Shown here piece after piece: positions 6,123-64,000 of a DNA stretch of 64,000 nucleotides. How positions within the stretch are numbered: position 1 is the stretch's first letter; each line of letters begins with the position of its first letter. The notes below the pieces were generated by a model, which was not told where the DNA came from, searched no databases, and saw nothing but the letters and a program-made list of their open reading frames with translations. This stretch comes from a virus: positions 36,558-100,557 of the IMG/VR virus record IMGVR_UViG_3300032236_001191. One strand, written 5' to 3'. Both the position numbers and the translations under genes were made by a program.

Positions 6123-9059
6123 GTGGCAGCAACGCAAAATATGATGACTCCTGGTCAAAACCCTGATGCAAATGAGCAGGGTATGATTGAGGTGCTTGAA
6201 AAGAAGCTGCCTGGAATCTTAAAGATCTTTGAAAAGATTACGGAACAAACTAAAAAACAGTTTAACTATACCCAAAAGACCATGGGTAACTTTAATGGTG
6301 GGGATGCTGGTGGGGGCAAACTTGGCTTAGGTTCATTTGGTTTAAGCAGAGGCCAAGTTGCTCTTGGTATGGGTGTGATGGCTGGTGCCTCATACATGAG
6401 TATGGCACCTAATACTATGTCTGCGGTAACTCAGCGCATGAGTGCAGACTCTATGTCTGGACGCATGAATAGTGCAGGCATGACTTCAAGAAGTATTATT
6501 GCCCAGTCTAATAAATTAGTTGCAGGTGGCGCTACAAGCGCTATGGGCCCTACGATGGCCGCTATGAACCTTTCTTACCAGGGTGGTTACTCAGTAAGCT
6601 CCCTTAGCTCTAAGAACGTTATGGCAAGCCTAGGAGGCCTTAGCGCCCTTACTGGTGGGTCTAACGAGCAGGTAGCTTCTACCATGGCCGGTATGAACGG
6701 TATGGGATTTTTACGTGCCGGAATTAACATCCGTGACTCAAAGGGACAACTTCTTCCAATCCCTCAAATTGTAAACCAAGTTTATAAAGTTTTGTACGGT
6801 GGTCGTACACCTACAGCTGATCAAGCTAATATGCTTCTTAACCCTAACTCAAAGGGTTGGAAGACACTTATGATGATTACTGGCGGAGATGCAAATCTTA
6901 GCCAGACTATTGCTATGGCCGTTCGTGATCGTGCTGCTAATGGTAAAGACCTTGCTAACAACGCATACTCAAGCGCCCAGGGTACTTTAGACCGTATGGG
7001 TGTAAGTAAAGACGCACCTACTAGAGCTAACTTTAGATTTAATAGCAGTGAGAATAAAGTATTACAGGCTACTGAAAAAGGATTAGTAGGCGGATATAAC
7101 GCATCTCTTAACACAGCAGCTGGACTAAACAATGGTTTTGCACAGCTAGCAAGTCTTCTTGGACCGGTTAACGATGGGTTGATGACTCTTAAAGGCATAC
7201 TCCAAACATTTCCTAATGCAGGTAATATGGGCGGAACTGTTTCTGGACTTACTGCTATGGGATCAAACTTAGCTGGTAGCGCACTTCAATACGGAATGAT
7301 GAGTAAAGCATTTGGTGGAGGAGCTGCTGGTTCTGGAGCGTTAGCTGCTACAGAAGAAGCCGCTGTAGTAGGCGGGTCTATGATGAGTCGTCTTAAAGGT
7401 GGATTTGGAAAAGTAGGGTCTAACTTATTTAAGGGTGGACTTGGAAAACTTTTTAAAGGTGGTTTAATTTCTTTAGGCGGAAACCTTGTTGGAGATGTTG
7501 TTAAAGGACATTCTGCAAAAGGTAGTGGACGCTCAAGAGCAGGTAATGCTCTTAAGACTGGCGCTTCTTGGGCTGCAATGGCAAGTTTATTTGCCCCTGA
7601 AACTTTTGGTTTATCTACAGCAATTGCAGGAATTGCAGGCGGTATTTATGGAGCATTTCAGGGTGGTCCTAATGATGGCATGACCTTAAGTAACCCATCA
7701 GATTCTAAGAGCCAAGCTTCAGGATCTGCAACTATGGCATTACCAGTTCCTAAAGGAACTCCTATTACATCTCCTTTTGGACACCGTAAAGGTGGGCAAG
7801 GCATTTCAAGTAACCACCAAGGTATTGACTATGGCGTTGCCGAGAATACAAATATTACCGCTGCAGCAGATGGTGTTGTTACTGAAGTAGGTAACGGTGG
7901 TGGTTACGGTAACTATATTATTATTAAGCACGGAAATAAATCAACTCTTTATGCTCACTTAAATACAGCTTTAGTTAGCAAAGGTCAGTCCGTAAAAAAG
8001 GGAACTGTAATTGCTAAGTCTGGTGGTAAAAAGGGTGCGCCTGGTGCAGGCCACTCTACTGGTCCACACCTTCACTTTGAGTTGCGTGATAATGGTGGTC
8101 GTGGTGCAGGTGGCCGTGTTAACCCTTCAAACTGGTTTGGAAAAACTGCCGGTTGGATTGGTAACCTAGCAAGTAAAGCTTTTGGGTTTGTAAAGAGTGT
8201 ATTAACTGGGCATGACCCATTTGCTTCCCATAGTGGAAGCGTATTGTCACACAATAACAACCCACAATTTAAAGGTCTTTCTGATTTAAGTAGTCCTGGA
8301 ATTTCTGGATTACTTTCACAAAATGTTTCTCGTGGTAGACCTATTGGGTGGGAAGATATTGTCAACAAAGTTGGCGCTAAAAATATTGCAAAGCTAAAGG
8401 GCAATCCAAACTCTGTGGGCGATGTATATACCCCTGCAGATGGAGATGCGGGCCATATGGTTGGTGGCAGCCGTAAGGGTCTTATGAAAATGCTCTATGC
8501 CCAAGGCTTCAGAGGGGCTGGTTTAGAGACTGCGTTTGCTGTAGCACTTGCTGAGTCTGGTGGAGTAAGCCGAAGAAACTATAGCCTTAAAACTGGTGAT
8601 GATTCTTATGGCGCATTTCAGATTAATATGCTTGGGTCATTAGGTCCTGCACGTAGAAAGAAATTTGGTCTTAGTAAAGACTCTGACCTTCTTGACGGTA
8701 AAACCAACTTAAGAGTTGCGTATACAATGTCCCATGAAGGAAATAATTTTAAAGCTTGGTCCACATACAAGAACGGTAAATTTGCTTCCTACCTAGACGA
8801 TGCCTATAAAACTGAAAAAGCTGCAGGTATCGGTGGCGGCACACAAGCTGTCGGTGTGGGTAGTATGCCAGAGCACAACATGTCTCATGGCAGGTCTGGT
8901 GGGGGAGCCCACCTCAGTGCCAACACAAACATAGAGGTTAAAGTTAATATGCAAGTGCATATTGAACGCTCTAGTTTCCAAGAAGCGGATAAGATGTTTA
9001 AGCAATTTGCCCACCGTATTGAGACAGATTTACGACACCACATTGGAGGAACTTACTAA
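6123..9059 (+). CDS. Tape measure protein with C-terminal M23 peptidase and lytic transglycosylase-like domains
   Basis: Gly/Ala-rich helical N-terminal half; M23 motifs HQGID, YAHL, STGPHLHFE; SLT-like 'AVALAESGG...GAFQIN...N...AW..Y'. Confidence 0.88.
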   Translation: MAATQNMMTPGQNPDANEQGMIEVLEKKLPGILKIFEKITEQTKKQFNYTQKTMGNFNGGDAGGGKLGLGSFGLSRGQVALGMGVMAGASYMSMAPNTMSAVTQRMSADSMSGRMNSAGMTSRSIIAQSNKLVAGGATSAMGPTMAAMNLSYQGGYSVSSLSSKNVMASLGGLSALTGGSNEQVASTMAGMNGMGFLRAGINIRDSKGQLLPIPQIVNQVYKVLYGGRTPTADQANMLLNPNSKGWKTLMMITGGDANLSQTIAMAVRDRAANGKDLANNAYSSAQGTLDRMGVSKDAPTRANFRFNSSENKVLQATEKGLVGGYNASLNTAAGLNNGFAQLASLLGPVNDGLMTLKGILQTFPNAGNMGGTVSGLTAMGSNLAGSALQYGMMSKAFGGGAAGSGALAATEEAAVVGGSMMSRLKGGFGKVGSNLFKGGLGKLFKGGLISLGGNLVGDVVKGHSAKGSGRSRAGNALKTGASWAAMASLFAPETFGLSTAIAGIAGGIYGAFQGGPNDGMTLSNPSDSKSQASGSATMALPVPKGTPITSPFGHRKGGQGISSNHQGIDYGVAENTNITAAADGVVTEVGNGGGYGNYIIIKHGNKSTLYAHLNTALVSKGQSVKKGTVIAKSGGKKGAPGAGHSTGPHLHFELRDNGGRGAGGRVNPSNWFGKTAGWIGNLASKAFGFVKSVLTGHDPFASHSGSVLSHNNNPQFKGLSDLSSPGISGLLSQNVSRGRPIGWEDIVNKVGAKNIAKLKGNPNSVGDVYTPADGDAGHMVGGSRKGLMKMLYAQGFRGAGLETAFAVALAESGGVSRRNYSLKTGDDSYGAFQINMLGSLGPARRKKFGLSKDSDLLDGKTNLRVAYTMSHEGNNFKAWSTYKNGKFASYLDDAYKTEKAAGIGGGTQAVGVGSMPEHNMSHGRSGGGAHLSANTNIEVKVNMQVHIERSSFQEADKMFKQFAHRIETDLRHHIGGTY

Positions 9060-39347: not shown

Positions 39348-41824
39348 TAGTTACCAAATCTCCTTCGTACGGCGGCGATAACGGTTGTTAACACCAAGAT
39401 TTTTTTAGCTTTCTTACGAGTAATAGGGGACATGTCATTACCGATGTTAGCCATGGCAACGAATGCGTGGTTTAAAGCCTGTACGCCAGGCACTACCGCT
39501 AGGGCCCCAGTAACAGGGGTTTCAATAACGGGTACGGCAACGTCAGGTGCGTTGAATGTTGTTCCGCCTGGTTGTCCGATAAATGTATCAACCAAGGTTA
39601 TCGCATCAGGTGGAATTGGTAGGCCTGAACCAGGTGGTGGTGGGGGTGGAGTTAGCTTTCCATCTTCACCAATTACCTGTGGTTGAGTTTTAGTACCAAA
39701 GAACTCAATGCCACCATTCTCTACGCCTGCTTTATCTTCCTGCACGTGTGGCACGAGAAGTTCTTTTGGAGCTTCTTTAGGTATAGAATCAGGTAGTGAG
39801 TCTGGATTATTAGGAATTAACCCGGGGGTAGAAGATGAGTCTGTGGTGGGATCTGTGGAAGGTGCGGGAGCTGGCTGAGGATCTGGCGCAGCGGGTGGAG
39901 TATCTGCGGGAGTCTGCGGTTCAGGAGCAGGGTCAGGTGCCGGAGTGGGTTTTTCCTCTGGAGCGGGCTCTGGAGCGGGCTCTGGAGCAGGTTCCGGCTT
40001 TGGATCAGCAGTTGGGGCAGGTTCGTCCGCAGGTGCTTGAGCGTCTGGAGCAGGTTCTGAAGGAACAGGGTCCGCTACTGGCACGTCTGGCTGTATCTGA
40101 GGCGCAGGATCGGGTTGTGGAGCTGGAGCAGGAGCTGGAGCAGGCGCAGCAGCTTGTGCAGCAGCGGCAGCAGCAGCTTCTGCAGCAAGACGATCAGCCT
40201 CAGCTTTAGCAGCAGCATCCGCTGCAAGTTTATCATTAACAACAGTTGTAATAGTAGAAACGGTAGATTGTAATGAAGTCTGTACTTGAATTGATTGGTC
40301 TAGGGCTGATTGTGATAGTGAGCTGGCTGTCTGTAAACTGGCTTGGGCGTTCGCTTGTAGAGTTGCTAAAGAAGAACTCTCAGTAACAAGAGTTGCTTCT
40401 GCAGACGTAAGGTTCGCTTGAGCTGTAGCTAGATCCTGCTGTGCCTGATCGTATGTAGCCTGTGCTGCGCTAACAAGTGCGGCATTATCAGAAGCAGCAT
40501 GTACAGCTGCGTTATAGGCATCCCACGCAGCATTTCGTTCTGCAAGCTTTGTATCGTAAGCAGCTTGAGCGGTTACTACTGCTTGAGCTGTAGCTGGTAT
40601 TGCTGCTTGGGCAGCAGCAGCTGCCGCAACTAGGGTTGGATCTTTAGTTGTTACGGTTGCGGCAAAAGCACTAGAACCAGGAGTTGTAAAGTATCCGGTA
40701 CCATCTGCTCTAAAAATAGCCCAACCAAGTGTGCAAGTTGCCCCACCACCATTTTCATAATACCAGATAACAAAGTCTTGCTGCTTATCTGTAGTGGTGT
40801 TGTACATAGGTGAGTATGGGCTCCAAGTAGTTCCTTGGTCTCTCCAGTTATTGATAGCAAGAGCGCCATCAATATACATCATTGAGCCGTCATCTGATGA
40901 GACAGCGTATTTAACTGCGACTGCTTCATCTGGAACTGTAATGGTTCCCTCAAACTTAACAATTACACGATCTGATGGGCCGCCCATAACAGAGCCATTA
41001 CCCCAGTTAAATGCAATATTTGGAACAGTAGTTGTTTTAATTGGGGTTGTATTAGCAGTAGGAAGCGCCGGTGTACGCCCTGTACCAGCATAGACTGTAG
41101 CTTTAATCCCATTAGTTGTAGTAGTAACTGTAGAGGCATCTGCCGCTGCTTGAGCAATAGGGGCTGCAATAACTGCTGCATCTGCCGCTGCTTGTGCGGT
41201 AGTGACTTGGTCATGCAAAGGACCTAGCTCAGAATTTGTATTGTAAAAGTGAACGCATTCAGATCCCTCAGCACACGCTGCAGCCGCATCTAGGGCTGGT
41301 TGAGCATCTTGAGCAGATGTTAAATCTGTTTGGGCTGAAGTAACGGTGGATGTTGCTACAGCAACTTCATCAGTCTTTGCTGCCACAGTTGCTGTGGCTG
41401 ATTCAACTACTGCGATCTGAGCTGTTACAGATTCTTGTGCTTGTTGGGCTATAACTATGGCCGTAGTAGCATCCGTTATAGTGGCCTTAGCAGCCGTTAC
41501 AAGGGCTGTAGAGGACTCAATAGCGGCAGTTGCTACTGTGTTGCTCTCCACATAGCTAAGCTTCTCAGGGGTATCTACAATCGCTTTTACAGCGGTATCG
41601 GCTGCAGCTGTTGCAGAATCAATATTATTTTGGGCAGCGGTAACCTGGGAAATTGCTGTACTTAAAGCATCAGCTACTGTAACTACCGCTGTAGAGGTGT
41701 CTAGTGCTGGGGCAATGACGACCTGATCTGTTGTAAGTTCATCTGCGTGTGCAGTTAATTGTGTGCCTAACAAATAAAGAAATAGTACGAGGATTAGTTC
41801 TACGAATAATCGTAGTTTTCTTAT
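39347..41824 (-). CDS. Secreted / surface protein with PA14 domain, coiled coils, Pro-rich linker and C-terminal anchor
   Basis: PA14 motifs 'NFNWG.G...', 'SDDG...YIDG...INNW.DQG', 'WYYENGGGA'. The frame extends upstream to an ATA at 41824 after AAGGAG, giving a signal peptide ending AHA. Confidence 0.8.
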   Translation of the reverse strand: MRKLRLFVELILVLFLYLLGTQLTAHADELTTDQVVIAPALDTSTAVVTVADALSTAISQVTAAQNNIDSATAAADTAVKAIVDTPEKLSYVESNTVATAAIESSTALVTAAKATITDATTAIVIAQQAQESVTAQIAVVESATATVAAKTDEVAVATSTVTSAQTDLTSAQDAQPALDAAAACAEGSECVHFYNTNSELGPLHDQVTTAQAAADAAVIAAPIAQAAADASTVTTTTNGIKATVYAGTGRTPALPTANTTPIKTTTVPNIAFNWGNGSVMGGPSDRVIVKFEGTITVPDEAVAVKYAVSSDDGSMMYIDGALAINNWRDQGTTWSPYSPMYNTTTDKQQDFVIWYYENGGGATCTLGWAIFRADGTGYFTTPGSSAFAATVTTKDPTLVAAAAAAQAAIPATAQAVVTAQAAYDTKLAERNAAWDAYNAAVHAASDNAALVSAAQATYDQAQQDLATAQANLTSAEATLVTESSSLATLQANAQASLQTASSLSQSALDQSIQVQTSLQSTVSTITTVVNDKLAADAAAKAEADRLAAEAAAAAAAQAAAPAPAPAPAPQPDPAPQIQPDVPVADPVPSEPAPDAQAPADEPAPTADPKPEPAPEPAPEPAPEEKPTPAPDPAPEPQTPADTPPAAPDPQPAPAPSTDPTTDSSSTPGLIPNNPDSLPDSIPKEAPKELLVPHVQEDKAGVENGGIEFFGTKTQPQVIGEDGKLTPPPPPPGSGLPIPPDAITLVDTFIGQPGGTTFNAPDVAVPVIETPVTGALAVVPGVQALNHAFVAMANIGNDMSPITRKKAKKILVLTTVIAAVRRRFGN

Positions 41825-41924
41825 TTGAGGGTCTCCTTTAGACTATGCCCATAGTTTAACATGACAAGGTGTATTTTTACAGGCATAGTTACACCATTCG
41901 TAACTACATACCCGGAGACTGCCC

Positions 41925-54563: not shown

Positions 54564-56477
54564 TTATCTGCCACGCTTTTTAATTGCTCCGACTACTACC
54601 TTACGAGCAAACGGTAGAAGATCACCTGCGGATCTAACACGGCCATAGATTTCAGCACCGTGACGCAAGTCATCTTCAGTTTGTCCATGACGTTCGATCC
54701 ACTCTAGATCTCGGTCTTCAGCGATAAGGGTTAGCACAGTGAGGATGCCACGCTTGTTAATGCGTTCGATTAGCTCATCGTTCTTCTCCTTATTGAATAC
54801 GCCATCAGTGATAACGAATAGCATCTTATTCTTCTTACGAGATGCCATGAGTAACTGCTCAGCAACCAGCAGGGCTGGATACGGCTCAGTGCCACCATTA
54901 CCATAGATAAACTTGTAGTCCGTCTTACCGGCTTTCTCTGTACGTTTGTAGGCCACTTCAGGCTTATCATCAAACGCATAGACTGTAACCGGTGCATCAA
55001 TGTGCTCTAGCGCACGTTTGATAGTCCAGCATGCAATAGATGCTTTTCTATCATTCTGTCCACTAGACATTGAGCCTGAACGATCGATAAGGATAACTGC
55101 TTCGATATCGCAGCCATCATCACCTTCGTCCCAGCGATCGAAAGCGTTGTCAATCTCACATCCACGAATAACTCGTTGAACATTGAGACGACCACTAGGT
55201 GTTTCCTTACTCCATGTAGGCTCTGCATCATCACGCAGACGTTGCAGTTCTTTGGCGAACCTACGGTACGAGACAATGGCTTCCTGCGGTACAGCAGTGC
55301 TGTCGAACTTGCCTCGCTTGATAGTATCTTCATGCTTACCATCGCCACCAACAATAACTTTCTGCTTGGCTTTGATGTCAGCTTGAACATCCTTACGATT
55401 AAGAACATTCTCAATCGTATCGTCCAATAGCTTAGGTATACCACCTACGCTATCCACATGGCCTACACCTGCAGTAGGCGATGCTTGTGAGTTAACTGCC
55501 TCATCACGCATTTCTATTGCATCTTGTACGCTTTGCGGTACAAATACAACAGGCTGACCTTCTCCATCACCAGGCTTACTACTCTCTGCCGTACTTTCTT
55601 CGGCTTGGTCTGATGGATCGGATGTGCTTGATGTTTGTGTTGGTTGAGGCTTAGGTCTAGGAACATATACTGGCTCCTTGACTCCCATGCTTTTAGCACG
55701 ATTAGCATCTTTCTCCTGCGCTTTGCCTGGTTCAGGTCGACCCTTAGATACTGGTTCACGTCCTCCACAGGAACTAGGACCACCATCAAAGGTACTATCT
55801 ATACCCATAGGCTTTAGCACTTCAGTGTTCAATCGTCTAACAAGTTCTATTGCTCGTCCATAGTCCTTAGGAAAATGAAGAGTACGATACTCATCAACGA
55901 TTTCTATGATTGCAGGGATAAGATCAGGGAATGCGAACGCATCTCTGAATGCTTGTCGTACTTCAACCGGTAGATATCTACGGCCACGGATACATAGATA
56001 GTTGCCTGGCATAGACTCTCTGTCTTCACCAAGCCACCTAGCTACTGTGGCTGTTAGGAATGGAGCAACTGAGGGAAACCGTGCTACGAACAGGGTTTCG
56101 ATACGTTGATCCTCGAGTATGTTAAACGACTGCATCAGATCTTCTTCAAGAACTTTCTTGACTAGGTCTGTGCCTTTGCGAGGCGTATACAGGTGATGAC
56201 ATAGCTCGTGATAGTTGAGGCCAGTGACTTGGGTTAGAGTTTCTAAGTCCATGTCATTGATCTCTTCTGCATTGATAGTAATAGACGCACCGTCAGACCA
56301 TGCTGGCGCTGGACCATTACTTGCTACGTGTACTAGTACTGGATCACCAGTTAGTACACGGTCTGCTTGCTCGTATACTCGGCACAAGGCGTTAAGACGA
56401 ATCGAACGCTCTTGCGCCTCTTCAGCCCTAGCTTCTTGATGCCAACCGTATACATCATCCATCTCATCTTGAAACAT
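54564..56477 (-). CDS. VWA-domain protein with N-terminal HExxH motif (CobT-like partner of an AAA+ ATPase)
   Basis: MIDAS DRSGSM, GGT, ITDG; N-terminal HELCH and N.LED.RIE. Confidence 0.88.
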   Translation of the reverse strand: MFQDEMDDVYGWHQEARAEEAQERSIRLNALCRVYEQADRVLTGDPVLVHVASNGPAPAWSDGASITINAEEINDMDLETLTQVTGLNYHELCHHLYTPRKGTDLVKKVLEEDLMQSFNILEDQRIETLFVARFPSVAPFLTATVARWLGEDRESMPGNYLCIRGRRYLPVEVRQAFRDAFAFPDLIPAIIEIVDEYRTLHFPKDYGRAIELVRRLNTEVLKPMGIDSTFDGGPSSCGGREPVSKGRPEPGKAQEKDANRAKSMGVKEPVYVPRPKPQPTQTSSTSDPSDQAEESTAESSKPGDGEGQPVVFVPQSVQDAIEMRDEAVNSQASPTAGVGHVDSVGGIPKLLDDTIENVLNRKDVQADIKAKQKVIVGGDGKHEDTIKRGKFDSTAVPQEAIVSYRRFAKELQRLRDDAEPTWSKETPSGRLNVQRVIRGCEIDNAFDRWDEGDDGCDIEAVILIDRSGSMSSGQNDRKASIACWTIKRALEHIDAPVTVYAFDDKPEVAYKRTEKAGKTDYKFIYGNGGTEPYPALLVAEQLLMASRKKNKMLFVITDGVFNKEKNDELIERINKRGILTVLTLIAEDRDLEWIERHGQTEDDLRHGAEIYGRVRSAGDLLPFARKVVVGAIKKRGR

Positions 56478-56486
56478 GAGTCTCCT

Positions 56487-57914
56487 TTACACTATGCCGT
56501 GTGTTTGAGCAAATTGGCCTGCCCAAGCTGTAAACTCTTCATCTACAGATTTAACTTCTGGTTCCTTCTCTGTTTCCACAGGGATTTCGATACCGAAGTC
56601 AGTCTTGATGTTGTGTTCATATGTTTGGAATATGAGACGTACGCTGGCAGCTTCATCTGACCCAAAGTGAGCAATGAAGTTCTCAACTGCGAACTCATAT
56701 CCCAATGCATCTACGAAGTGTGTGAACTCCTGTAGCATATTGGTAGAGATTGGTGTTTCATACTGACCCTTGGCTGCCTCATTACGAAGCATCTGGGCTA
56801 GTGCTAACAACGACTTAGAGTTAACTAGCTTAGCCTCAACCTTATCGTCATAATCCCAAGGGATCTGAATGTCGAAACGGTTACGGAACGCAAAGTTAAG
56901 CGGCGTTGTACCAATGTAGTCTGGATTCATAGTCGCAAAGATTGTGAGGTCTTTGTGTGCTTCGATAGTTTCACCGTGGTGGTCAAGCAATGTGATCATA
57001 CGGCGACCATCTAGCAATGAATACAGAACAGTGTAGATTTTCGGACTGATGAAGTTAACCTCGTCGAGAAGGAGAACACCACCATTACGAACTACGTCAG
57101 TAACTGGGCCATCGATCCACGCAAATGAACCTGAGCCATCAGCTACGAACTTACCAGTCATTTGGCTTGGCTCCATTGAAGCGTTACCTGAGACTGTTGC
57201 CATGCGTAGTCCTCGTTCAGCAGCCCACGCTTCAACAGACGTAGTCTTACCGGGACCGGTTGGGCCGTAGATAAGTACGTTGATGTTGTTGGCACGAGCG
57301 TGATCGAAGATACTGAAGTCTTCTTGACCCCAGATGCTACGATGGATATATCGCTTAGCTAGCTCAATGCGTGGCACTGATGCTAGGTTCGCTGCAATTA
57401 CCGGACCAGCTCCAACGGATGCTGTTACAGGTTCGGCGATTGTTTGTGTTGGCTGTACCACTTGTACTGGTGAAGCCAATGGAACAGTCGTGCCAGCTGC
57501 ACGACGATTGTCAATTACATATTGCTCCAAGTTATCATCTCCATTGCTTACTTGTTCGTAGAGTTCACAGACAGCATCAACAAATGATGTTGTGTCTGTG
57601 TTTGGACTTGCTTTGGTATGCGCTTGACATGCCTTGGTACCAAGAACTGGAGAATAACCTTTCTCCGTCATAGCCCGTTCATCGGCTGCTGTAACATAGA
57701 TAGCAACAGGTGTACGAGTGAGTTCTTCGTTTGTTCCAATCAACCCAGTAAGCCCATCAAGATCCGTTTCTTCCCACTTGTTATGTGGGCCTTTGGATCC
57801 ATCGGTATTACGTGAGTAGATACGTACGTTACCATCATGCGGTGTGATAAGAACCTGACGGCGCTTAGCCCCCATGGTTGGTTCGTACGATTCTGTGAAC
57901 ACGGCGATATCCAT
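56487..57914 (-). CDS. MoxR / CbbQ / CobS-type AAA+ ATPase
   Basis: GPTGPGKT, LLLDEVN, ATMNP.Y.GT..LN.AF.NRF. Confidence 0.9.
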   Translation of the reverse strand: MDIAVFTESYEPTMGAKRRQVLITPHDGNVRIYSRNTDGSKGPHNKWEETDLDGLTGLIGTNEELTRTPVAIYVTAADERAMTEKGYSPVLGTKACQAHTKASPNTDTTSFVDAVCELYEQVSNGDDNLEQYVIDNRRAAGTTVPLASPVQVVQPTQTIAEPVTASVGAGPVIAANLASVPRIELAKRYIHRSIWGQEDFSIFDHARANNINVLIYGPTGPGKTTSVEAWAAERGLRMATVSGNASMEPSQMTGKFVADGSGSFAWIDGPVTDVVRNGGVLLLDEVNFISPKIYTVLYSLLDGRRMITLLDHHGETIEAHKDLTIFATMNPDYIGTTPLNFAFRNRFDIQIPWDYDDKVEAKLVNSKSLLALAQMLRNEAAKGQYETPISTNMLQEFTHFVDALGYEFAVENFIAHFGSDEAASVRLIFQTYEHNIKTDFGIEIPVETEKEPEVKSVDEEFTAWAGQFAQTHGIV

Positions 57915-57956
57915 GTCTTTGTCCTTTCGTTGTTGGTATTGCTTTCTAGTAGTCTA

Positions 57957-58232
57957 CTAGAAACCTAGTTCATCTTCATCAGGGTTGAGTGTGAGTTCAG
58001 TCACTGCTCTAGCCCTGCTGTCTAGCACAGCAGCAAAAGTAAATGCTGCTTGTCGTTCTTTAGCCCAGTCAATAATGAGCTCGTGAAGGATGTCATGTCC
58101 CTCAGCAAGATTGATTACATTACGGAACTGTTCTTGTGCATAGTTAAAGAACTCTTCACGTTCTTCTTCTGGTATTTCTGCGAGAAAGTCAATATCTGCA
58201 TTCTCGTTCTCATCATCACATGCATTGCACAT
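57957..58232 (-). CDS. Acidic hypothetical protein
   Basis: GGAG RBS before ATG 58232. Confidence 0.55.
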   Translation of the reverse strand: MCNACDDENENADIDFLAEIPEEEREEFFNYAQEQFRNVINLAEGHDILHELIIDWAKERQAAFTFAAVLDSRARAVTELTLNPDEDELGF

Positions 58233-58263
58233 GAGGTACTCCATTCTTGTTAGGGAATTAAAT

Positions 58264-58298
58264 AGCCGGGAGCACACCTATAAGGCATGCTCCCGGCT
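58264..58298 (-). terminator. Strong hairpin directly downstream of the ncRNA candidate
   Basis: AGCCGGGAGCA...TGCTCCCGGCT followed by ATTT on the - strand. Confidence 0.65.
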
Positions 58299-58301
58299 TA
58301 T

Positions 58302-58520
58302 GTGCTCCAAGTAACTTACTCAGGAAGGATGTAAGAACCACAGAGGTTAGTCTATTGCGTTCAGCTCACTGTTCAGCGCACCACACTCGTTGCCTATGTC
58401 GGCATTGGAAGCACTTAAGTCTTACCAGGTTGAGTCAGGTTTAAACCTACTTAGAATGTTGCGTTCGGCCTCAAGTTCCCTAAGGGGATACAACGTGCTG
58501 TCTCTCGTTACTTATTGCAC
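58302..58520 (-). ncRNA. Structured ncRNA candidate A (about 220 nt)
   Basis: 5' and 3' ends pair (GUGC..UAAGUAAC / GUUACUUG..GCAC); several internal hairpins and crossing pairings; no ORF. Confidence 0.6.
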
Positions 58521-58548
58521 TATGGTCATAGTTAGACTATAACCAATC

Positions 58549-59043
58549 TTATACTGTTGCATTCTGGCGTTCAAACCATGCTGCATTTGATGCTTTACCA
58601 GATTCAATTGCCATCACCAAGTAGATTGGTCCAGGCATTCCTGACTTGATTGCTTTTGCCATAGCCCAACCTAGTGGGCGTGTATTTTCTGGGGTGTTAC
58701 GCATGAGCGCTTTCAAAGCGACATCACGCATCTCACATACAATTGCAACTGTCGCAGTGAGTTCACTGAATACAGTCAGGGATTTAGGAGCCATACTAGG
58801 CACGGCTCGTAACATACGAGTCATGTTTGCTAGTGCACCTTCGTGATTGCTTGTGTTGGACACGTACTCTAACAGCTTACCAATAACAGCATCACGATAT
58901 GAAGCATCGTTCCACATTAGCTCTGCTAAGTTTTCTGGAACCATGCCATTGTATAATGCGTAGGCCGCTTGCTGCGGATTCTCTACTGGGTTTACAGTTT
59001 GATGTGTACTTGCCCCATCATATTCAACCGATAGGTTGGACAT
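58549..59043 (-). CDS. DUF4192-like helical protein
   Basis: 'RDAV...', 'A..AL.......L...A.....GMP' pattern resembling actinobacterial DUF4192. Confidence 0.45.
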   Translation of the reverse strand: MSNLSVEYDGASTHQTVNPVENPQQAAYALYNGMVPENLAELMWNDASYRDAVIGKLLEYVSNTSNHEGALANMTRMLRAVPSMAPKSLTVFSELTATVAIVCEMRDVALKALMRNTPENTRPLGWAMAKAIKSGMPGPIYLVMAIESGKASNAAWFERQNATV

Positions 59044-59743
59044 ATGCTGCCATCGCTTTCTCTAGTTCGGATAGTGCTTTCTTTATTACCTTGCCATCTT
59101 TAATGCGAAGTGGAGAACCATCCCACATTAAAGAAATTGGTTTGTTACCGTAATCACGCTGACCACTACCTACACAGTAATAGCATTGTTGACCACGAGT
59201 TATTGTGTGTCCAGTATCAATACCGTGTTCGCAAGGCAAATAATGCCAACGAGAGTATTGATTTTGGTACGCAGCGTTAGGATGCTCTTCACACACGCCA
59301 TACGATCCTTTGTTGTAACACATATTAGGGCTACAATACTTATCGATTAAGCCAGAACCTTTACAAGATCTGCATCGCTGCATCTTGCTTGGTGTGTACT
59401 GTGGGTCTTTCTCGGTAATGTAGTGCTTACCTTGTCGTTGGAATACATTTTGTACGCCAGCAATTTGCATAAGACTATATCTAATACCTTGAGACTTAAG
59501 TGAGTGCCAAGGACCCCAGTAACCATTTTGGATTATTGGGGCTTGGATAGTAAGCACGTCATCTGTGTCAATCGTGGCGATGTCGGCATGAAGCCAAGGA
59601 ATGTGGACTGCGTACAGCCCACCTTTCCTTGCTTGTAGCCTCATACCACGATAGTAAAGAGTTCTATCAATACCCTTACCTCGACCACCTTTGATCCAGT
59701 CTTGGGCATTAACATAGCTCTGTAACTGGTGGATGTTAGACAT
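59024..59743 (-). CDS. Protein with DnaJ-type CxxCxGxG zinc finger
   Basis: CRSCKGSG...CYYCVGSG. Confidence 0.6.
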   Translation of the reverse strand: MSNIHQLQSYVNAQDWIKGGRGKGIDRTLYYRGMRLQARKGGLYAVHIPWLHADIATIDTDDVLTIQAPIIQNGYWGPWHSLKSQGIRYSLMQIAGVQNVFQRQGKHYITEKDPQYTPSKMQRCRSCKGSGLIDKYCSPNMCYNKGSYGVCEEHPNAAYQNQYSRWHYLPCEHGIDTGHTITRGQQCYYCVGSGQRDYGNKPISLMWDGSPLRIKDGKVIKKALSELEKAMAAYVQPIG

Positions 59744-60036
59744 TAGTTAGCCTCCACACTTTCAAACAATCCCGCATAGCAGATATCAAAACTCTGCTCA
59801 CGAGCTTGTTCCAGTTCACGTGGTTTATCGAACTCTTCATCAAACCATACGATTGATATAGGGTTACGTCTAGCACGCTTAGGGGATATAGCAAACAAGG
59901 CTTGACCAAGACCATCGATAACTCCGGTATGGTAAGCCCTGCTGTGTTGATCAGTGAGCTCGTTAAGGTTGAGTTCCTCTTCGAGCATCATTGTTTCTAT
60001 CTTGTCAGCCAATTGACGGCGCTTTCGCTTTCGCAT
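59743..60036 (-). CDS. Hypothetical protein
   Basis: AAGGA RBS before ATG 60036. Confidence 0.55.
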   Translation of the reverse strand: MRKRKRRQLADKIETMMLEEELNLNELTDQHSRAYHTGVIDGLGQALFAISPKRARRNPISIVWFDEEFDKPRELEQAREQSFDICYAGLFESVEAN

Positions 60037-60397
60037 GCCGTACTTCCTTTCTTGTTGAACCAACGGGTTGTACCACGCTGATTGGGCTGGTTGTAAGGTC
60101 AGACTCTACAATATACGTACGATGACCTCGCATCTTAGGTGTTGTACCACCTTGGATACTATGTGCATCATCACGTAGGATTGCGTCATCTAGACATTGT
60201 TGCTTTACATTGCAATTAGCACAGACCTTGAGAGCTGCTCGCTCTTTAGCTCTGCGATGCGTTCTATTACTATCCTCTGCGGTGTAATAGAAATCATTTA
60301 CGTCTAGACCATTGCAGTTTGCTTGGTCTTGCCACGCACCTAATGCTGCCATATCCCATACCACTGGTAGTGGGACATAGTCGCTTGGCATATCCAT
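60005..60397 (-). CDS. whiB: Divergent WhiB family protein
   Basis: WQ.QA.C.....FY...A.KVC.NC.V...CL..A.......SIQGG.T...R; GGAGG RBS. Confidence 0.8.
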   Translation of the reverse strand: MDMPSDYVPLPVVWDMAALGAWQDQANCNGLDVNDFYYTAEDSNRTHRRAKERAALKVCANCNVKQQCLDDAILRDDAHSIQGGTTPKMRGHRTYIVESDLTTSPISVVQPVGSTRKEVRHAKAKAPSIG

Positions 60398-60558
60398 TGT
60401 GACCTCCGTAATGCGGCGCCGATTGTTTGTGTTGGTTGGCACCAGCGTGCCTATACAGACTTTGACATCTGTATAGGCGAGTTGATTTATATGCCGCTAA
60501 CTAAGCGGCCTTACGAGGGAGGTTTTCGTTCAGGAGAACTCCCGCCATCCGTGTAAGA

Positions 60559-60756
60559 TTAGTCAGCATCAAATGATGGACGATAGATATCATCCATCAG
60601 TGTGCGCTTCTTTGCATCAAGCTTGCGTATGTACAGGTGGGTAGCCTGTGCTTCATAGTACATCTCACGCCAGTAACGAACCATGAAGGATAGCGCTACT
60701 ACTGTGCACAAGAGGATTAGGAATACCCATGATTGAATTGTAGTCATAGGAAACAT
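60559..60756 (-). CDS. Small membrane protein
   Basis: N-terminal transmembrane helix. Confidence 0.55.
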   Translation of the reverse strand: MFPMTTIQSWVFLILLCTVVALSFMVRYWREMYYEAQATHLYIRKLDAKKRTLMDDIYRPSFDAD

Positions 60757-61037
60757 TATGCGTCAACCTGCTCTTTCTGCTCAGCTTTCTTAGCCTTGTA
60801 GACTTCACCAGTCTTCCAATGAGGAATGTTTGGGTGATCCCAACGACCACCAGCAGCCTTCCATGCTTCACGCTTAGCGTAGTTAGCAGCGCTGCGTCCT
60901 TCTACACGACCGGAACGACTAACGAACTTGCGTTCGATACCATCTGGGCCAGGACGCTTCTTGCGTGCCTTACCATTCTTACGGTCGCCTGCTGTGTTTG
61001 CTTTAACTGGAGCCTGAGCTCCTCTACCTTTTGCCAT
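60756..61037 (-). CDS. Basic hypothetical protein
   Basis: AAGGGG RBS; Lys/Arg-rich. Confidence 0.6.
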   Translation of the reverse strand: MAKGRGAQAPVKANTAGDRKNGKARKKRPGPDGIERKFVSRSGRVEGRSAANYAKREAWKAAGGRWDHPNIPHWKTGEVYKAKKAEQKEQVDA

Positions 61038-61058
61038 TGTATGGCCCCTTTCGGAGGG

Positions 61059-61208
61059 TTAGTTTGTTTCCTCTACACGGTCGTGCAGAGTGGTGATGCC
61101 ATCGTTCCATAGCATCAATGCTTCCTTGCGAGTACAGCCGTGAAACAACTGTGCCTCTAGTATGAATAACAACTTCTCAGTTGTATCTGATTTGATTTTA
61201 ATCTTCAT
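61059..61208 (-). CDS. Small hypothetical protein (49 aa)
   Basis: Translated by hand; fills the gap. Confidence 0.4.
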   Translation of the reverse strand: MKIKIKSDTTEKLLFILEAQLFHGCTRKEALMLWNDGITTLHDRVEETN

Positions 61209-61440
61209 GCGTATGCCAATCTATGAGTAGATGGGTTGTACCCCATTTTTTATATGGCTTATCAATGATGGAGTATAACTTCCACCACCTATACCCAGCC
61301 TTGGGCATAGTCTCTTGGTTTTCATACCTAACCTCATACTTCAATGCTTTGTGCAAAGGGTATGATGATAGATGATTACACCAATTAGCAAACCACCTGA
61401 GTGGCAAGATATTGGTCTTGTGTTCTGGTCTAGTACGCAT
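61198..61440 (-). CDS. Hypothetical protein
   Basis: ORF track; AGGA RBS. Confidence 0.55.
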   Translation of the reverse strand: MRTRPEHKTNILPLRWFANWCNHLSSYPLHKALKYEVRYENQETMPKAGYRWWKLYSIIDKPYKKWGTTHLLIDWHTHED

Positions 61441-61451
61441 ATAGGTTTATC

Positions 61452-61859
61452 CTAAAGCATATCTAGTATTTGTTTAGTCAATGTAATCTCTGCATCAGCA
61501 GAGACTCGAAGAGTAAGAAGCAATCTCTCCCTAGAATTGTAGTCACGCTCAGATGAATCCCATTGACGGTATCCATAAGTATATGTTTCTTCTTGTTCGA
61601 TTAACTTAGGGGGTTCAGGAATCGTTACTTCTTTTGGAAATACAATAGACAATGATTGTTTATGGTATCTATCAGTCTCAACGCTGCAACCAACGCCTGA
61701 TTCAAGTAACTTAGCAACTTCGATAAGATACTTTTTGCACTCTTGTTGGTACTCTTCAATGCGTTGTTCTTCTTTTCTTTTAGCATCTGCTTTATCAGCA
61801 AGATACTTCGCTTGCTTTTCTTCAAGTTCTTTAATGAAGTCGAGCCTATTTAAGCGCAT
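61452..61859 (-). CDS. Hypothetical protein
   Basis: AGGAG RBS. Confidence 0.65.
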   Translation of the reverse strand: MRLNRLDFIKELEEKQAKYLADKADAKRKEEQRIEEYQQECKKYLIEVAKLLESGVGCSVETDRYHKQSLSIVFPKEVTIPEPPKLIEQEETYTYGYRQWDSSERDYNSRERLLLTLRVSADAEITLTKQILDML

Positions 61860-61896
61860 TGTGTTCTCCTATTCTGTGTAGGGCTGTCATAGACAG

Positions 61897-62035
61897 CAAT
61901 AGACACATAGATGCGGACCGACATTGCCAATGGCGTCCCCTCCTTAGCCGTTAGGCGCAAGGGGTTCACCGAGGACATTCTCTGAGGCTATGTTTATGGC
62001 TACCTATGCCCAGTGCATCTATGTGTCTATCATTG
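61897..62035 (-). ncRNA. Structured ncRNA candidate B (about 140 nt)
   Basis: Perfect 16-bp closing stem (61899-61914 / 62015-62030) around a GC-rich interior that can pair. Confidence 0.55.
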
Positions 62036-62043
62036 TGTATGAA

Positions 62044-62074
62044 TAAGCAGTTTAGCCTTGTCATGCTTAGGACA
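62044..62074 (-). ncRNA. H-type pseudoknot, copy 1
   Basis: UGUC-CUAAGCAU-GACA-AGGCUAAAC-UGCUUA; covaries with copy 2. Confidence 0.6.
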
Positions 62075-62126
62075 GGAGTTCTTTTACCTCAGGAAGAACT
62101 ATAGAAACCAACCAGCATTACCTGTA

Positions 62127-62558
62127 TTAACGGATATACTGAGCCCAACCAGATGTTGTGTTGATCTTGAACTCAGTGTCAATAGAACCTTCAACCAAGG
62201 CAATAGCATTACGAACTTGTTCGTAATCACTATTTTCACGCCCTACCTTATGAGAAGGTTGGCAAAGACCCTCAGGACGCTTACCAACTGCAGCCTCAAA
62301 GTCTTCCGTCTTAAAGTAGAAAGCAATACGAACGCCCTTGTTGTATCCAGTAGATACATCAAAGTCATTAGACTTAAGCATATTCTTCTTAGCCCAAGCT
62401 GATGCTTTCTTTTCCCACGCTTCTCGTCGTGCATCTAGAGTTGCGCTGTCCTTTTCCCAAGCAGCAACCTCATCGTCCATACGCTTGAGGGTTGCTTTCA
62501 ACTTGGCGAGAAGGTCTTTCTTGGCCCAGGTGGTTGCGATTACCTTTGTACTAGCCAT
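62127..62558 (-). CDS. Hypothetical protein
   Basis: GGGAG RBS before ATG 62558. Confidence 0.65.
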   Translation of the reverse strand: MASTKVIATTWAKKDLLAKLKATLKRMDDEVAAWEKDSATLDARREAWEKKASAWAKKNMLKSNDFDVSTGYNKGVRIAFYFKTEDFEAAVGKRPEGLCQPSHKVGRENSDYEQVRNAIALVEGSIDTEFKINTTSGWAQYIR

Positions 62559-62617
62559 TTGTTTCTCCCGTCTGTTATTACATCCTATACTCCGGCTGAG
62601 TTTAGGAATTCTAGTGT

Positions 62618-62911
62618 GCATAAAGAAACAGAGGACACACGCATACTACTAATCGGATAGAAGGTAGAGTTTTATCCATAGCCCATTTGCGTAACGAAAA
62701 AACCAAAATTAAATAGATGTTGCAACAACTATCTAATCCTTCGTACCTACTGTGAGAGGAATATATGCGCTCCCTGAGTCCCTCAACCCCACAGTCCGTA
62801 ACTATTTCAATTTTCATCCCCCTCTGCATAGACCTATATCCTCACCTATACATACTCAGACTCAATTAACTATGATTAGCCTGTATGCGTGTGCCTTCTG
62901 CTTCTTTATGC
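62618..62911 (-). ncRNA. Structured ncRNA candidate C (about 295 nt)
   Basis: 29-bp closing stem (26 Watson-Crick, 2 G-U, 1 mismatch on the - strand) enclosing several hairpins. Confidence 0.6.
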
Positions 62912-62919
62912 TTTGCCTA

Positions 62920-63012
62920 TTACTTACGGCGTAACCAAGCAACTATGATCATAGTTAGTGCAAAACTAACTGTCATTAGTTGGAAGGTACCTTCTGAGAA
63001 CTCAATGTACAT
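62920..63012 (-). CDS. 30-aa membrane peptide
   Basis: GGAGG RBS; MYIEFSEGTFQLMTVSFALTMIIVAWLRRK. Confidence 0.55.
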   Translation of the reverse strand: MYIEFSEGTFQLMTVSFALTMIIVAWLRRK

Positions 63013-63178
63013 TTAACACCTCCAATTCCTTAATGTCGTTGGGGATAGCCACGCCATCACGGCGGGGAAGGGAACTGAGATACTGTGCTACTTGCTTAAC
63101 AAGCATAGCCGCAATGAAATCGTACTGTGCTTGAGTAACTGAACCTTTGACCTTAACAGTCATAGTCAACTGCTTCAT
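63002..63178 (-). CDS. Small hypothetical protein (58 aa)
   Basis: Translated by hand; GAAAGGA RBS. Confidence 0.55.
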   Translation of the reverse strand: MKQLTMTVKVKGSVTQAQYDFIAAMLVKQVAQYLSSLPRRDGVAIPNDIKELEVLNVH

Positions 63179-63250
63179 ATATGTTCCTTTCGATTAGGGG
63201 GACAAAAAAATAGTGGTACAACCTAATTAAAGGTCGTACCACCACGAGTG

Positions 63251-63282
63251 TGAGCCTTTTTACTGCCGACTTGCTCAGGTCG
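63251..63282 (-). ncRNA. H-type pseudoknot, copy 2
   Basis: CGAC-CUGAGCAA-GUCG-GCAGUAAAAAG-GCUCA. Confidence 0.6.
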
Positions 63283-63374
63283 TCCACTCTACTATCATCT
63301 CGCACGACGATAGTTCCCCTCAGAGTGCATCCCTCCATAGCATAAACTTGCGGGGGGTTTTTCGGGGGGAATTC

Positions 63375-63581
63375 TTATCTACCAGATGATTTACCACCAT
63401 CAGTAAGAAATGGATCATCTTTAGTTACATAGGCAAAGCCCTGCTTAGGGACAAGAACAAAGCGATAGTTATCTTGGCTCAGTCTTAGTTCCTTAGCGAT
63501 ACAGTCTTTAGCCATACAATACTCAAAGCCTGCTTCCCAACGGTCGGGATGAACAGGAGTATTACAATGGGGGCAAATCAT
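63375..63581 (-). CDS. Small Zn-finger protein
   Basis: CPHC......R...G.EYC...C; 'VPKQGF'. Confidence 0.6.
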   Translation of the reverse strand: MICPHCNTPVHPDRWEAGFEYCMAKDCIAKELRLSQDNYRFVLVPKQGFAYVTKDDPFLTDGGKSSGR

Positions 63582-63739
63582 AGACCAGCCTCTGTTGCTT
63601 CCTTGAGTACTTCTTCACCAAGAGGTGTAATGCTAACCATAGCTTCTAGGTTCTCGTTGTACTCAACCTTGATTAAGCCTTTACTAAGCAAACTAGCAAG
63701 AGAGTCGTCAAACTCTGCTTCAGTCATAGCCATTGTCAT
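63578..63739 (-). CDS. Small winged-helix-like protein
   Basis: GAAAGG RBS; 'L..L..KGLI.V.........IT.LG..VL'. Confidence 0.55.
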   Translation of the reverse strand: MTMAMTEAEFDDSLASLLSKGLIKVEYNENLEAMVSITPLGEEVLKEATEAGL

Positions 63740-64000
63740 TACCTTTCTGTTAACTCTCAGAATAGAGAGTAGTAGGGACACGGGCACGCACCATGCCCCT
63801 ACTACCGCCTACTCTGTCAAAATTTTTAAAAAATCGGGGGGACAAAGGCTACTCAGTGATAGTACCTATAGTAAGAACAGTAGAAGAGATACGATAGAAG
63901 ATAGAGCCATCCTTGTCGATACAGATAGCACGCAAGGGCTCACCTATCTTACATACATAGGAGAGGAAAGATATAGAGTCATTATCACCTCGTAGTGGCT

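Follow-up and report, generated by a model that had tools for sequence, protein, structure and literature searches.

Four conserved modules, here named RNA C, RNA A, RNA D and the pseudoknot element, lie in the intergenic gaps of a phage early operon, and their helices have been retained through double compensatory changes among related phages. Covariation of this kind shows that all four have been selected for RNA structure. The DNA analysed, referred to below as the window, is the last 64 kb (64,000 nucleotides) of the 100,557-bp IMG/VR virus record IMGVR_UViG_3300032236_001191, which is rated complete by CheckV. The region of interest is the leftward early operon of this roughly 100-kb actinobacterial phage, and between 58.2 and 63.4 kb of the window it holds five intergenic gaps of 160–360 nt each. 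The comparison with relatives supports the view that the conserved modules are sense-strand RNA elements and not plain promoters. A scan of the 6.1-kb region for sigma-70 consensus sites found fewer promoter-like sites (7) than are expected from shuffled sequences (11.4).

An original prediction, made by a model from the letters of the DNA alone, had proposed that these gaps hold folded elements rather than plain promoters. This proposal stands, on the basis of the covariation found in the homologues of RNA C, RNA A and the pseudoknots, and also of RNA D. The prediction listed three large RNAs with long closing stems; the duplexes of two of them, RNA C and RNA B, were found, and the stem of RNA A is shorter. 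RNA C and RNA A covary among relatives, whereas RNA B has no homologue. When the window was compared with Rfam 15 there was no match at gathering scores, and noise alone up to E = 10, so that the novelty of the elements with respect to Rfam stands. The families are new only as far as checked, a set of 8,495 candidate RNAs predicted from IMG/VR (PMC10690425) not having been compared.

Conserved RNA modules of the early operon

Relatives were collected using an AAA protein encoded further down the operon as query, which gave 35 loci on related IMG/VR contigs of about 100 kb (55–82% protein identity), and using the 143-aa protein of 62127–62558, which gave eight further loci. Gene order is broadly maintained among them. 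A first blastn comparison identified only two conserved non-coding pieces, namely the 72-nt stretch at 62114–62042 and the gap before whiB. RNA C and RNA A were missed by first-pass blastn and megablast, and required relaxed scoring and profiles. None of the open reading frames (ORFs) in the gaps is conserved among the relatives or has a match at the protein level.

RNA C (62619–62910, minus strand) is about 290 nt long, and is predicted to fold into a closing helix of 36 pairs and five inner helices, connected by strongly conserved joining regions. The closing duplex is formed by 62618–62646 and 62883–62911, 29 nt that are 90% complementary. With relaxed scoring the core gave a weak match to two relatives, and the resulting nhmmer profile identified at least 13 relatives, in which RNA C is always single and always on the sense strand. 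Where the neighbouring genes can be placed, it lies between the homologue of 63375–63581 and the pseudoknot element. The fold of every relative's RNA C has a long closing stem of about 20–35 bp, and the stem sequences differ. RNAalifold, run on 11 sequences, gave a consensus of 69 pairs, in which 95.4% of the cells are paired, compared to 83.4% in shuffles and 36–45% in slid controls. Double compensatory changes are present in 37 of the 69 pairs, against 15.6 ± 2.6 in shuffles, and none of 500 shuffles was as high; the closing helix (helix 1) accounts for 22 such pairs out of its 36.

Within the loci examined, the RNA C family appears to be confined to this phage clade. This follows from a scan of IMG/VR with a conserved RNA C word, which gave mostly chance matches: only 9 of the 117 loci were real, and at least 5 of those 9 were already among the relatives in hand. 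The window's RNA C contains an ORF of 72 aa, which is not conserved among relatives and has no protein-level match. In some relatives an optional 143-aa gene separates RNA C from the downstream genes, and in others this gene is absent. The window's own 143-aa protein (62127–62558) matches no Pfam or PHROGs family.

Two observations on the surroundings of RNA C are worth adding. Directly upstream (62920–63012, minus strand) is an ORF for a hydrophobic peptide of 24–30 aa ending in R(R)K and a stop, which is conserved in the window and in loci L009 and L010 and was not seen in L007, the one other relative read by eye. A C-rich word, UCCCCCCG, recurs in the window at 63838–63846, 63350–63368 and 63197–63203, and in relatives a C-rich word, UUCCCCGCGAAG, is found just 5′ of RNA C (for example at about 5960–5976 of L007). 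RNA C itself has an invariant G-run, AGAGGGGG, for which pairing with the C-rich word is conceivable.

The pseudoknot element is a conserved stretch of 72 nt (62042–62114, minus strand), consisting of GGUUGG, a hairpin displaying the word CCUGAGGUAAAA, and then the pseudoknot proper (62042–62078). It is matched by nhmmer on the sense strand in nearly all relatives, and is 93–100% identical in loci where the neighbouring protein is just 52–61% identical. The pseudoknot is of H-type and about 30 nt long, with stem 1, CU, GAGCA, one base, the return strand of stem 1, an A-rich strand ending in AAAC, and finally UGCUC. The copies in the window have the consensus NNNC-CU-GAGCA-W-GNNN-(N)AAAC-UGCUC with pairable stems. 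A hand-written descriptor was too loose, giving 179 matches on the sense strand and 142 on the other, and a covariance model (R1) was used instead. Run on the 100.5-kb genome, the model finds exactly two copies, both on the strand of the genes: the one just described (52.7 bits), and a second at 63249–63286 (34.1 bits, E = 1.4e-6), which is a variant ending in AAAAGGCUC that is also present in other phages.

The two covarying pseudoknots of the original prediction were therefore both recovered. In 32 copies from the clade both stems covary, with pairs in stem 1 such as GC 18 / CG 10 and UA 17 / AU 11, and GC 24 / AU 4 / GU 2 in stem 2. Double changes are seen in 7 of the 11 pairs, 91.9% of the cells are paired compared to 27–38% when slid, and the observed covariation score is reached by 0 of 500 shuffles. 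In this clade the pseudoknot sits in a larger element that also comprises a hairpin and the invariant word CCUGAGGUAAAA; most relatives have a second pseudoknot in it as well. These added parts hardly vary, and covariation therefore says little about them. A small peptide encoded in the element was considered and rejected, its AUG being ACG in half of the relatives and absent from the window's form, as was a pairing of the word CCUGAGG with stem 1, for which no covariation was seen by eye.

RNA A (58265–58513, minus strand) consists of a closing stem with inner helices and, immediately ahead of the ribosome-binding site (RBS) of a 91-aa gene, a terminal hairpin rich in GC. The closing stem (58513–58507 paired with 58315–58309) is shorter than those of RNA B and RNA C, and the terminal hairpin of 16 bp (58298–58264) is followed by only a weak U tract. 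Single-sequence searches with the window's RNA A missed the relatives. The relatives do keep a non-coding gap of 200–370 nt in the same place, between the homologues of 58549–59043 and 57957–58232, and these gaps are alike. Aligned with them, the window's RNA A shares blocks resembling GCCGGAAAGCAA and CCGUAGUNGCUAA, the block CCUUCNUG, and the terminal hairpin with its CUUAUAGG loop. In the RNAalifold consensus of 8 sequences, 21 of the 41 pairs have double changes, and these include the closing stem and terminal hairpin. Given that the blocks and the covarying fold are common to the gaps of the relatives, we conclude from the alignment that RNA A of the window is a divergent member of a second clade-specific family. 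No conserved ORF was found in it among the relatives. A likeness to raiA was also considered and dropped, there being no Rfam match either in the window or in seven relatives that carry a better-conserved form.

RNA D (60449–60557, minus strand) is a leader of about 110 nt before the WhiB-like gene, identified by nhmmer and RNAalifold. A closing stem surrounds a variable hairpin and a conserved GAAAAC; this is followed by a small hairpin, and lastly by a hairpin of 12 bp. The loop of the small hairpin can pair downstream as a candidate pseudoknot, as read by eye from the alignment. RNA D was found by nhmmer in at least 10 relatives, and in the RNAalifold consensus of 11 sequences 14 of the 24 pairs have double changes. 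On this comparative evidence it is a third conserved clade-specific family. The original prediction had used this gap only for one UCCUGA-loop hairpin; a conserved family was found in its place, and the hairpin class to which it was assigned was not (see below).

Strand sense, repeats and gene neighbourhood

The minus strand, which carries the genes, is also the strand on which the elements fold. Counts of G.U against A.C cells on this strand are 80/15 for RNA C, 29/9 for RNA A and 35/5 for RNA D, in agreement with the earlier claim that G-U pairs favour the minus strand. Several G.U pairs are invariant in RNA C, and its RNAalifold consensus energy is −63.5 kcal/mol in the sense direction compared to −35.9 in antisense. 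The alignment thus indicates that the folded strand of RNA C is the sense strand. All matches in related loci are on the same strand as the genes.

Folding energy, by contrast, was discarded as evidence for the gap RNAs. The gaps fold at z = −3.1 to −5.4 relative to dinucleotide shuffles, but 14 coding windows from the same operon (54600–63580) have a mean z of −2.4 and a minimum of −5.4, and the antisense strands of the gaps have z = −3.2 to −5.6. Since coding windows and antisense strands reach similar values, folding energy does not single out the gaps. It may be noted that single-sequence z-scores are a poor guide in this genome, the coding sequence of the operon folding well below shuffles.

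The equally low z on both strands could be taken to mean that the repeats act as DNA, in the form of operators, an origin, or cruciform or packaging signals, and that the RNA folds are incidental. The palindrome ACTATGRYCATAGT can be cited for the same view: genome-wide, allowing up to two mismatches, it has 16 sites, compared to 0 for a reversed control pattern. One of these sites (814–827 of the record) is at the opposite, left end of the contig, in the divergent promoter region. The excess of G.U over A.C cells and the much weaker antisense fold of RNA C both argue for RNA, as does the common orientation of all copies with the genes, and a pseudoknot topology with covariation in both stems would make no sense for duplex DNA. 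We consider it very improbable that the repeats act as DNA with only incidental RNA folds; for the conserved elements, DNA-level and chance readings are unlikely.

Exact copies of ACTATGRYCATAGT are found at 58520–58533 and 62942–62955, each within a 28-nt repeat (58519–58546 and 62942–62969), and further sites among the 16 lie in the window at 41454–41467 and 41842–41855. A palindrome upstream of two of the large RNAs had been described in the original prediction, and it is indeed exact at both sites, but its link to the RNAs did not survive comparison. In the stretches upstream of RNA C in 12 relatives, a comparable palindrome is present in L009 only, and L010 has an unrelated one; none was seen ahead of RNA A in the alignment with relatives. 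The copy before RNA C falls within the small hydrophobic ORF. The palindrome is probably a DNA-level binding site for a protein, a candidate operator of a phage regulator, and not part of the RNAs.

The three UCCUGA-loop hairpins put forward as a class fared less well. UCCUGA-type words are not enriched (41 observed, 39.5 expected), and the loops that match these hairpins read differently in relatives. With words at chance frequency and loop letters that are not conserved, we take the hairpins to be real parts of conserved elements and not a class.

RNA B differs from the other elements in being restricted to this phage. Its core (61887–62042, minus strand) is a 28-bp inverted repeat enclosing 100 nt, whose arms (61887–61914 and 62015–62042; 28 nt) are 86% complementary. 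Related loci, IMG/VR and the JGI metagenomes all failed to yield a homologue; a search with the arm pattern gave zero matches in IMG/VR, and its sole metagenome match was an unrelated low-complexity repeat. RNA B is wedged between the conserved pseudoknot and the RBS of the gene at 61452–61859, whereas in relatives RNA B is absent and the next start codon follows about 20–40 nt past the pseudoknot. Because it has no homologue, and is inserted where relatives have the pseudoknot and RBS adjacent, RNA B is, as judged from these loci, a lineage-specific insertion private to this phage.

A further proposal would be that RNA B has no function of its own and is a neutral or selfish insertion (palindromic, MITE-like, or an expansion segment), which might also hold for other long inverted repeats of the region. 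Its exact placement, its absence from every relative and from the databases, and its 28-bp terminal inverted repeats are in keeping with this. It is however single-copy in the genome, with no target-site duplication visible by eye and no transposase nearby, and the proposal is inapplicable to RNA C, RNA A and RNA D in view of their conservation and covariation. We regard it as improbable.

The operon's minus-strand genes extend from 64000 to about 53500. Most are small and of no identified family; the exceptions are a WhiB-like regulator (60005–60397) and, at lower coordinates, a VWA protein and an AAA_5 ATPase. The sequence has a G+C content of about 44%, and the WhiB-like gene points to an actinobacterial host. 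A terminator scan found one canonical intrinsic terminator in the operon region (63203–63245, minus strand), with a GC-rich hairpin of 15 pairs and a run of seven U. It lies 3 nt past the second pseudoknot match, and about 25 nt ahead of the next start codon. ARAGORN found no tRNA or tmRNA in the window. At the contig end, a 16-pair hairpin (63768–63806, minus strand) lies about 35 nt before the first small gene and is preceded by an A/T-rich palindrome.

The pseudoknot in other phages and bacterial assemblies

The pseudoknot is not restricted to this clade. IMG/VR has at least 120 contigs with the pattern CCTGAGCA-N(6-16)-AAACTGCTCA, and a species-representative genome set has at least 119. 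The matches concentrate at a single length of 25 nt, which is not how chance matches behave. Stem 1 is in register in 124 of 135 viral matches and in 58 of 101 genome matches. Among cultured phages it is carried by cyanophage S-RIM4, Paracoccus phage ParMal1 and Mycobacterium phage Labelle, where a copy follows gene 85. A word search of the literature for the letters of the motif returned only unrelated primer matches.

The location of the pseudoknot is characteristic. It most commonly starts 8–13 nt past the upstream stop codon, and in other phages the next start codon is 20–40 nt beyond it. The proteins encoded downstream are mutually unrelated, 137 of them falling into 95 clusters. In 14 of 176 copies a tRNA gene starts 5–14 nt after the pseudoknot, and in only 1 is there a tRNA upstream. 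A U-rich tract follows the pseudoknot in 33 of the 176 copies, compared to 4 in the control. Its placement at gene ends, together with the unrelated downstream genes, leads us to consider the pseudoknot a generic inter-cistronic element, found mainly at gene ends, and not a metabolite switch specific to a pathway. An in-frame second stop was rejected, since the invariant URA of the pseudoknot has no frame preference (59/47/38). The case for mimicry of the tRNA acceptor is weak, the base after the 3′ stem not being conserved in copies found without that constraint.

Several further observations were made on individual copies. Of the 14 tRNA genes that follow a pseudoknot, 11 are tRNA-Asp and start 5–13 nt after it (L054, L066, L067, L077, L083, L093, L099, L114, L126, L128, L154 and others); in the tRNA-Asp cases that were read, the upstream gene ends in a common ...AEKNKI... 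tail. The largest cluster of pseudoknot-adjacent genes in unrelated phages (L093, L102, L153, L066, L177 and others) encodes proteins that, on inspection, look like the 143-aa protein of 62127–62558, and several of these genes have a copy of the pseudoknot on both sides. Genome contigs from diverse phyla (L202, L204, L220, L223, L231) have a conserved ORF for a peptide of about 20 aa (MKR[FY]..P[RV].AHC.EGC...), whose UGA stop is inside the CCUGAGCA of the pseudoknot. Finally, a contig from a Polynucleobacter metagenome-assembled genome (L194) contains, some 200 nt away from a same-strand copy of the pseudoknot, a type III hammerhead ribozyme (7541–7595, minus strand; Rfam, 50.5 bits), and by eye a second hammerhead-like core directly after the pseudoknot.

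Possible processing and function

On the basis of these observations, and by analogy with known systems, we hypothesise that structured RNA modules are encoded, in the sense of the genes, by the larger intergenic gaps, form part of a polycistronic early transcript and are then processed. Host RNase III would cut the duplexes of 28–36 pairs that close RNA C and RNA B, as in rRNA precursors and the early region of T7, and this cleavage would part the cistrons from one another and set free the cores inside the duplexes. The 3′ ends would be occupied by the compact pseudoknots and by the GC-rich hairpin that terminates RNA A; these structures would shield the upstream RNA from 3′-to-5′ exonucleases, and may assist termination where a U tract follows. 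Once released, the cores of RNA C and RNA A would remain as stable RNAs and bind a partner, either a protein or another RNA. Protection of 3′ ends would fit the pseudoknot's tight spacing from upstream stop codons and its position immediately ahead of tRNA genes, at which an end would be made by RNase P. The conservation of the joining regions in RNA C and RNA A suggests that these RNAs are not merely processed but have a partner. As a whole, we give this reading an even chance of being correct.

An RNase III site requires about two turns or more of near-perfect duplex, and such duplexes are present in RNA C (29 nt at 90%, 36 consensus pairs) and RNA B (28 nt at 86%). In T7 early-region RNase III sites and in the closing stems of rRNA precursors, as here, a long duplex is formed from the sequences that flank a unit in a polycistronic transcript; in T7 the duplexes likewise lie between cistrons of the early operon, and the helix of RNA C has been kept while its sequence drifts. 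The RNA C duplex differs in that it encloses, in place of an rRNA or short internal loop, a conserved multi-helix core of about 220 nt; the sequences are not similar, and cleavage here is predicted.

A number of points weigh against this hypothesis. Processing, stability and cleavage by RNase III are inferred only, by analogy. The conserved bulges in the closing helix of RNA C could block RNase III. The closing stem of RNA A has just 7+4 pairs, so that the excision model is inapplicable to it. The window's two pseudoknots are 56 and 95 nt past the preceding stop codon, with other structure between, and not at the usual 8–13 nt. About 30 nt ahead of RNA C is a copy of the 28-nt repeat that includes a −10-like TATGAT, and the partner copy reaches to just upstream of the RNA A closing stem, so RNA C and RNA A might be separate transcription units. 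As regards the evidence for the elements themselves, the gaps are not set apart from coding sequence by folding z-scores, the sequences behind the covariation counts are related to one another, and each RNAalifold structure was derived from the very alignment on which its changes were counted.

The same modules could instead be purely cis-acting leaders that set the expression of the next gene, for example as riboswitch-like or protein-binding attenuators, translational operators or antitermination signals of the HK022 put type, with no stable RNA being released. The elements end roughly 15–60 nt ahead of the next RBS, as would be expected of leaders. RNA D lies directly before the WhiB-like gene. 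The last structure of RNA A is a conserved hairpin resembling a terminator, with the 91-aa gene and the AAA/VWA pair following directly, although a conserved alternative (antiterminator) pairing in RNA A was sought by eye and none was found. The second pseudoknot ends 3 nt before the canonical terminator (63286–63203 together), leaving no room for a promoter before the next gene, and therefore read-through must be regulated or leaky. The position of the pseudoknot fits less well with this alternative, in that the genes that follow it differ among relatives and unrelated phages, and some copies precede tRNA genes, which are not translated. The same can be said of the optional 143-aa gene, present in some relatives only, between RNA C and the downstream genes. 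A helix of 36 pairs is far beyond the needs of a regulatory leader, and no Rfam riboswitch or leader family is matched. Purely cis-acting leaders are in our view a genuine but lesser possibility.

HK022 put and other antitermination RNAs do resemble the modules in being cis-encoded structured RNAs in a phage early operon that also holds terminators. However, put consists of two simple stem-loops beside the promoter, whereas here the first terminator is upstream of RNA C. The closest riboswitch parallel is preQ1-I (RF00522), along with small H-type triplex pseudoknots such as SAM-II. Like these, the phage pseudoknot has about 30 nt, two short stems, a first loop of 1–2 nt, and an A-rich third strand before the 3′ stem. 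Both its stems covary and the AAAC strand is conserved. It differs in its conserved letters (C-CUGAGCA-W-G ... AAAC-UGCUC) and in not being located in leaders of queuosine or preQ1 genes, being found before 95 unrelated downstream clusters and, in 14 copies, before tRNA genes. The RF00522 model has no match in the window up to E = 10, nor any at gathering score over the pseudoknots of three cultured phages.

Two specific ideas on function were abandoned. The genome has no reverse transcriptase, a search of the 100.5 kb with PF00078 finding none while controls respond, and the elements are therefore not a retron (msr-msd). An antitoxin of the ToxI type is likewise rejected, since there is no tandem array in 57900–64000 and the genome has only two pseudoknot copies, 1.2 kb apart. 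On present evidence the elements do not form a single system, the pseudoknot being generic to unrelated phages and RNA B private to this one.

RNA C invites comparison with two groups of large RNAs. In common with ROOL, GOLLD and raiA it is a large multi-helix phage-borne RNA with conserved unpaired joining regions, and the biochemical role of all these is unknown. RNA C is smaller (about 290 nt), is confined to one clade in the examined loci, has an unusually long closing helix, and has no Rfam match. 6S RNA and the actinobacterial Ms1 RNA are also of about 200–300 nt with a long irregular closing helix, and the host phylum and the WhiB-like neighbour would likewise point to transcription control. 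RNA C is however multi-branched, in place of a rod with a central bubble, and there is no Rfam match to 6S. A bolder and in our opinion doubtful proposal is that RNA C is a new class of large complex-folded phage RNA, excised from the early transcript at its 36-pair closing helix and acting in trans during host takeover, possibly by binding the host transcription machinery alongside the WhiB-like protein, and that the ~30-nt pseudoknot, as a new signal of near-universal occurrence in phages, marks the 3′ ends of mRNAs or protects them.

Structured RNA modules in phage early transcripts are already known; what is new here, as far as checked, is the families and their density in one operon. It is usual to see in a phage early region a series of small uncharacterised proteins, but in this clade conserved RNA structure makes up a sizeable share of the early operon. 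Three of the families are specific to the clade (about 290, 250 and 110 nt), and the fourth is a tiny pseudoknot common to hundreds of unrelated phages and many bacterial assemblies. The alignments, covariance model and coordinates define the families well enough for tests in cultured phages with the pseudoknot, of which Mycobacterium phage Labelle is one. A trans-acting RNA C would be an addition to the few large phage RNAs whose biochemistry is unknown. Should the pseudoknot mark or protect the ends of mRNAs, this would be a general rule of phage gene expression, and the motif would also be a handy signal for the annotation of gene ends.

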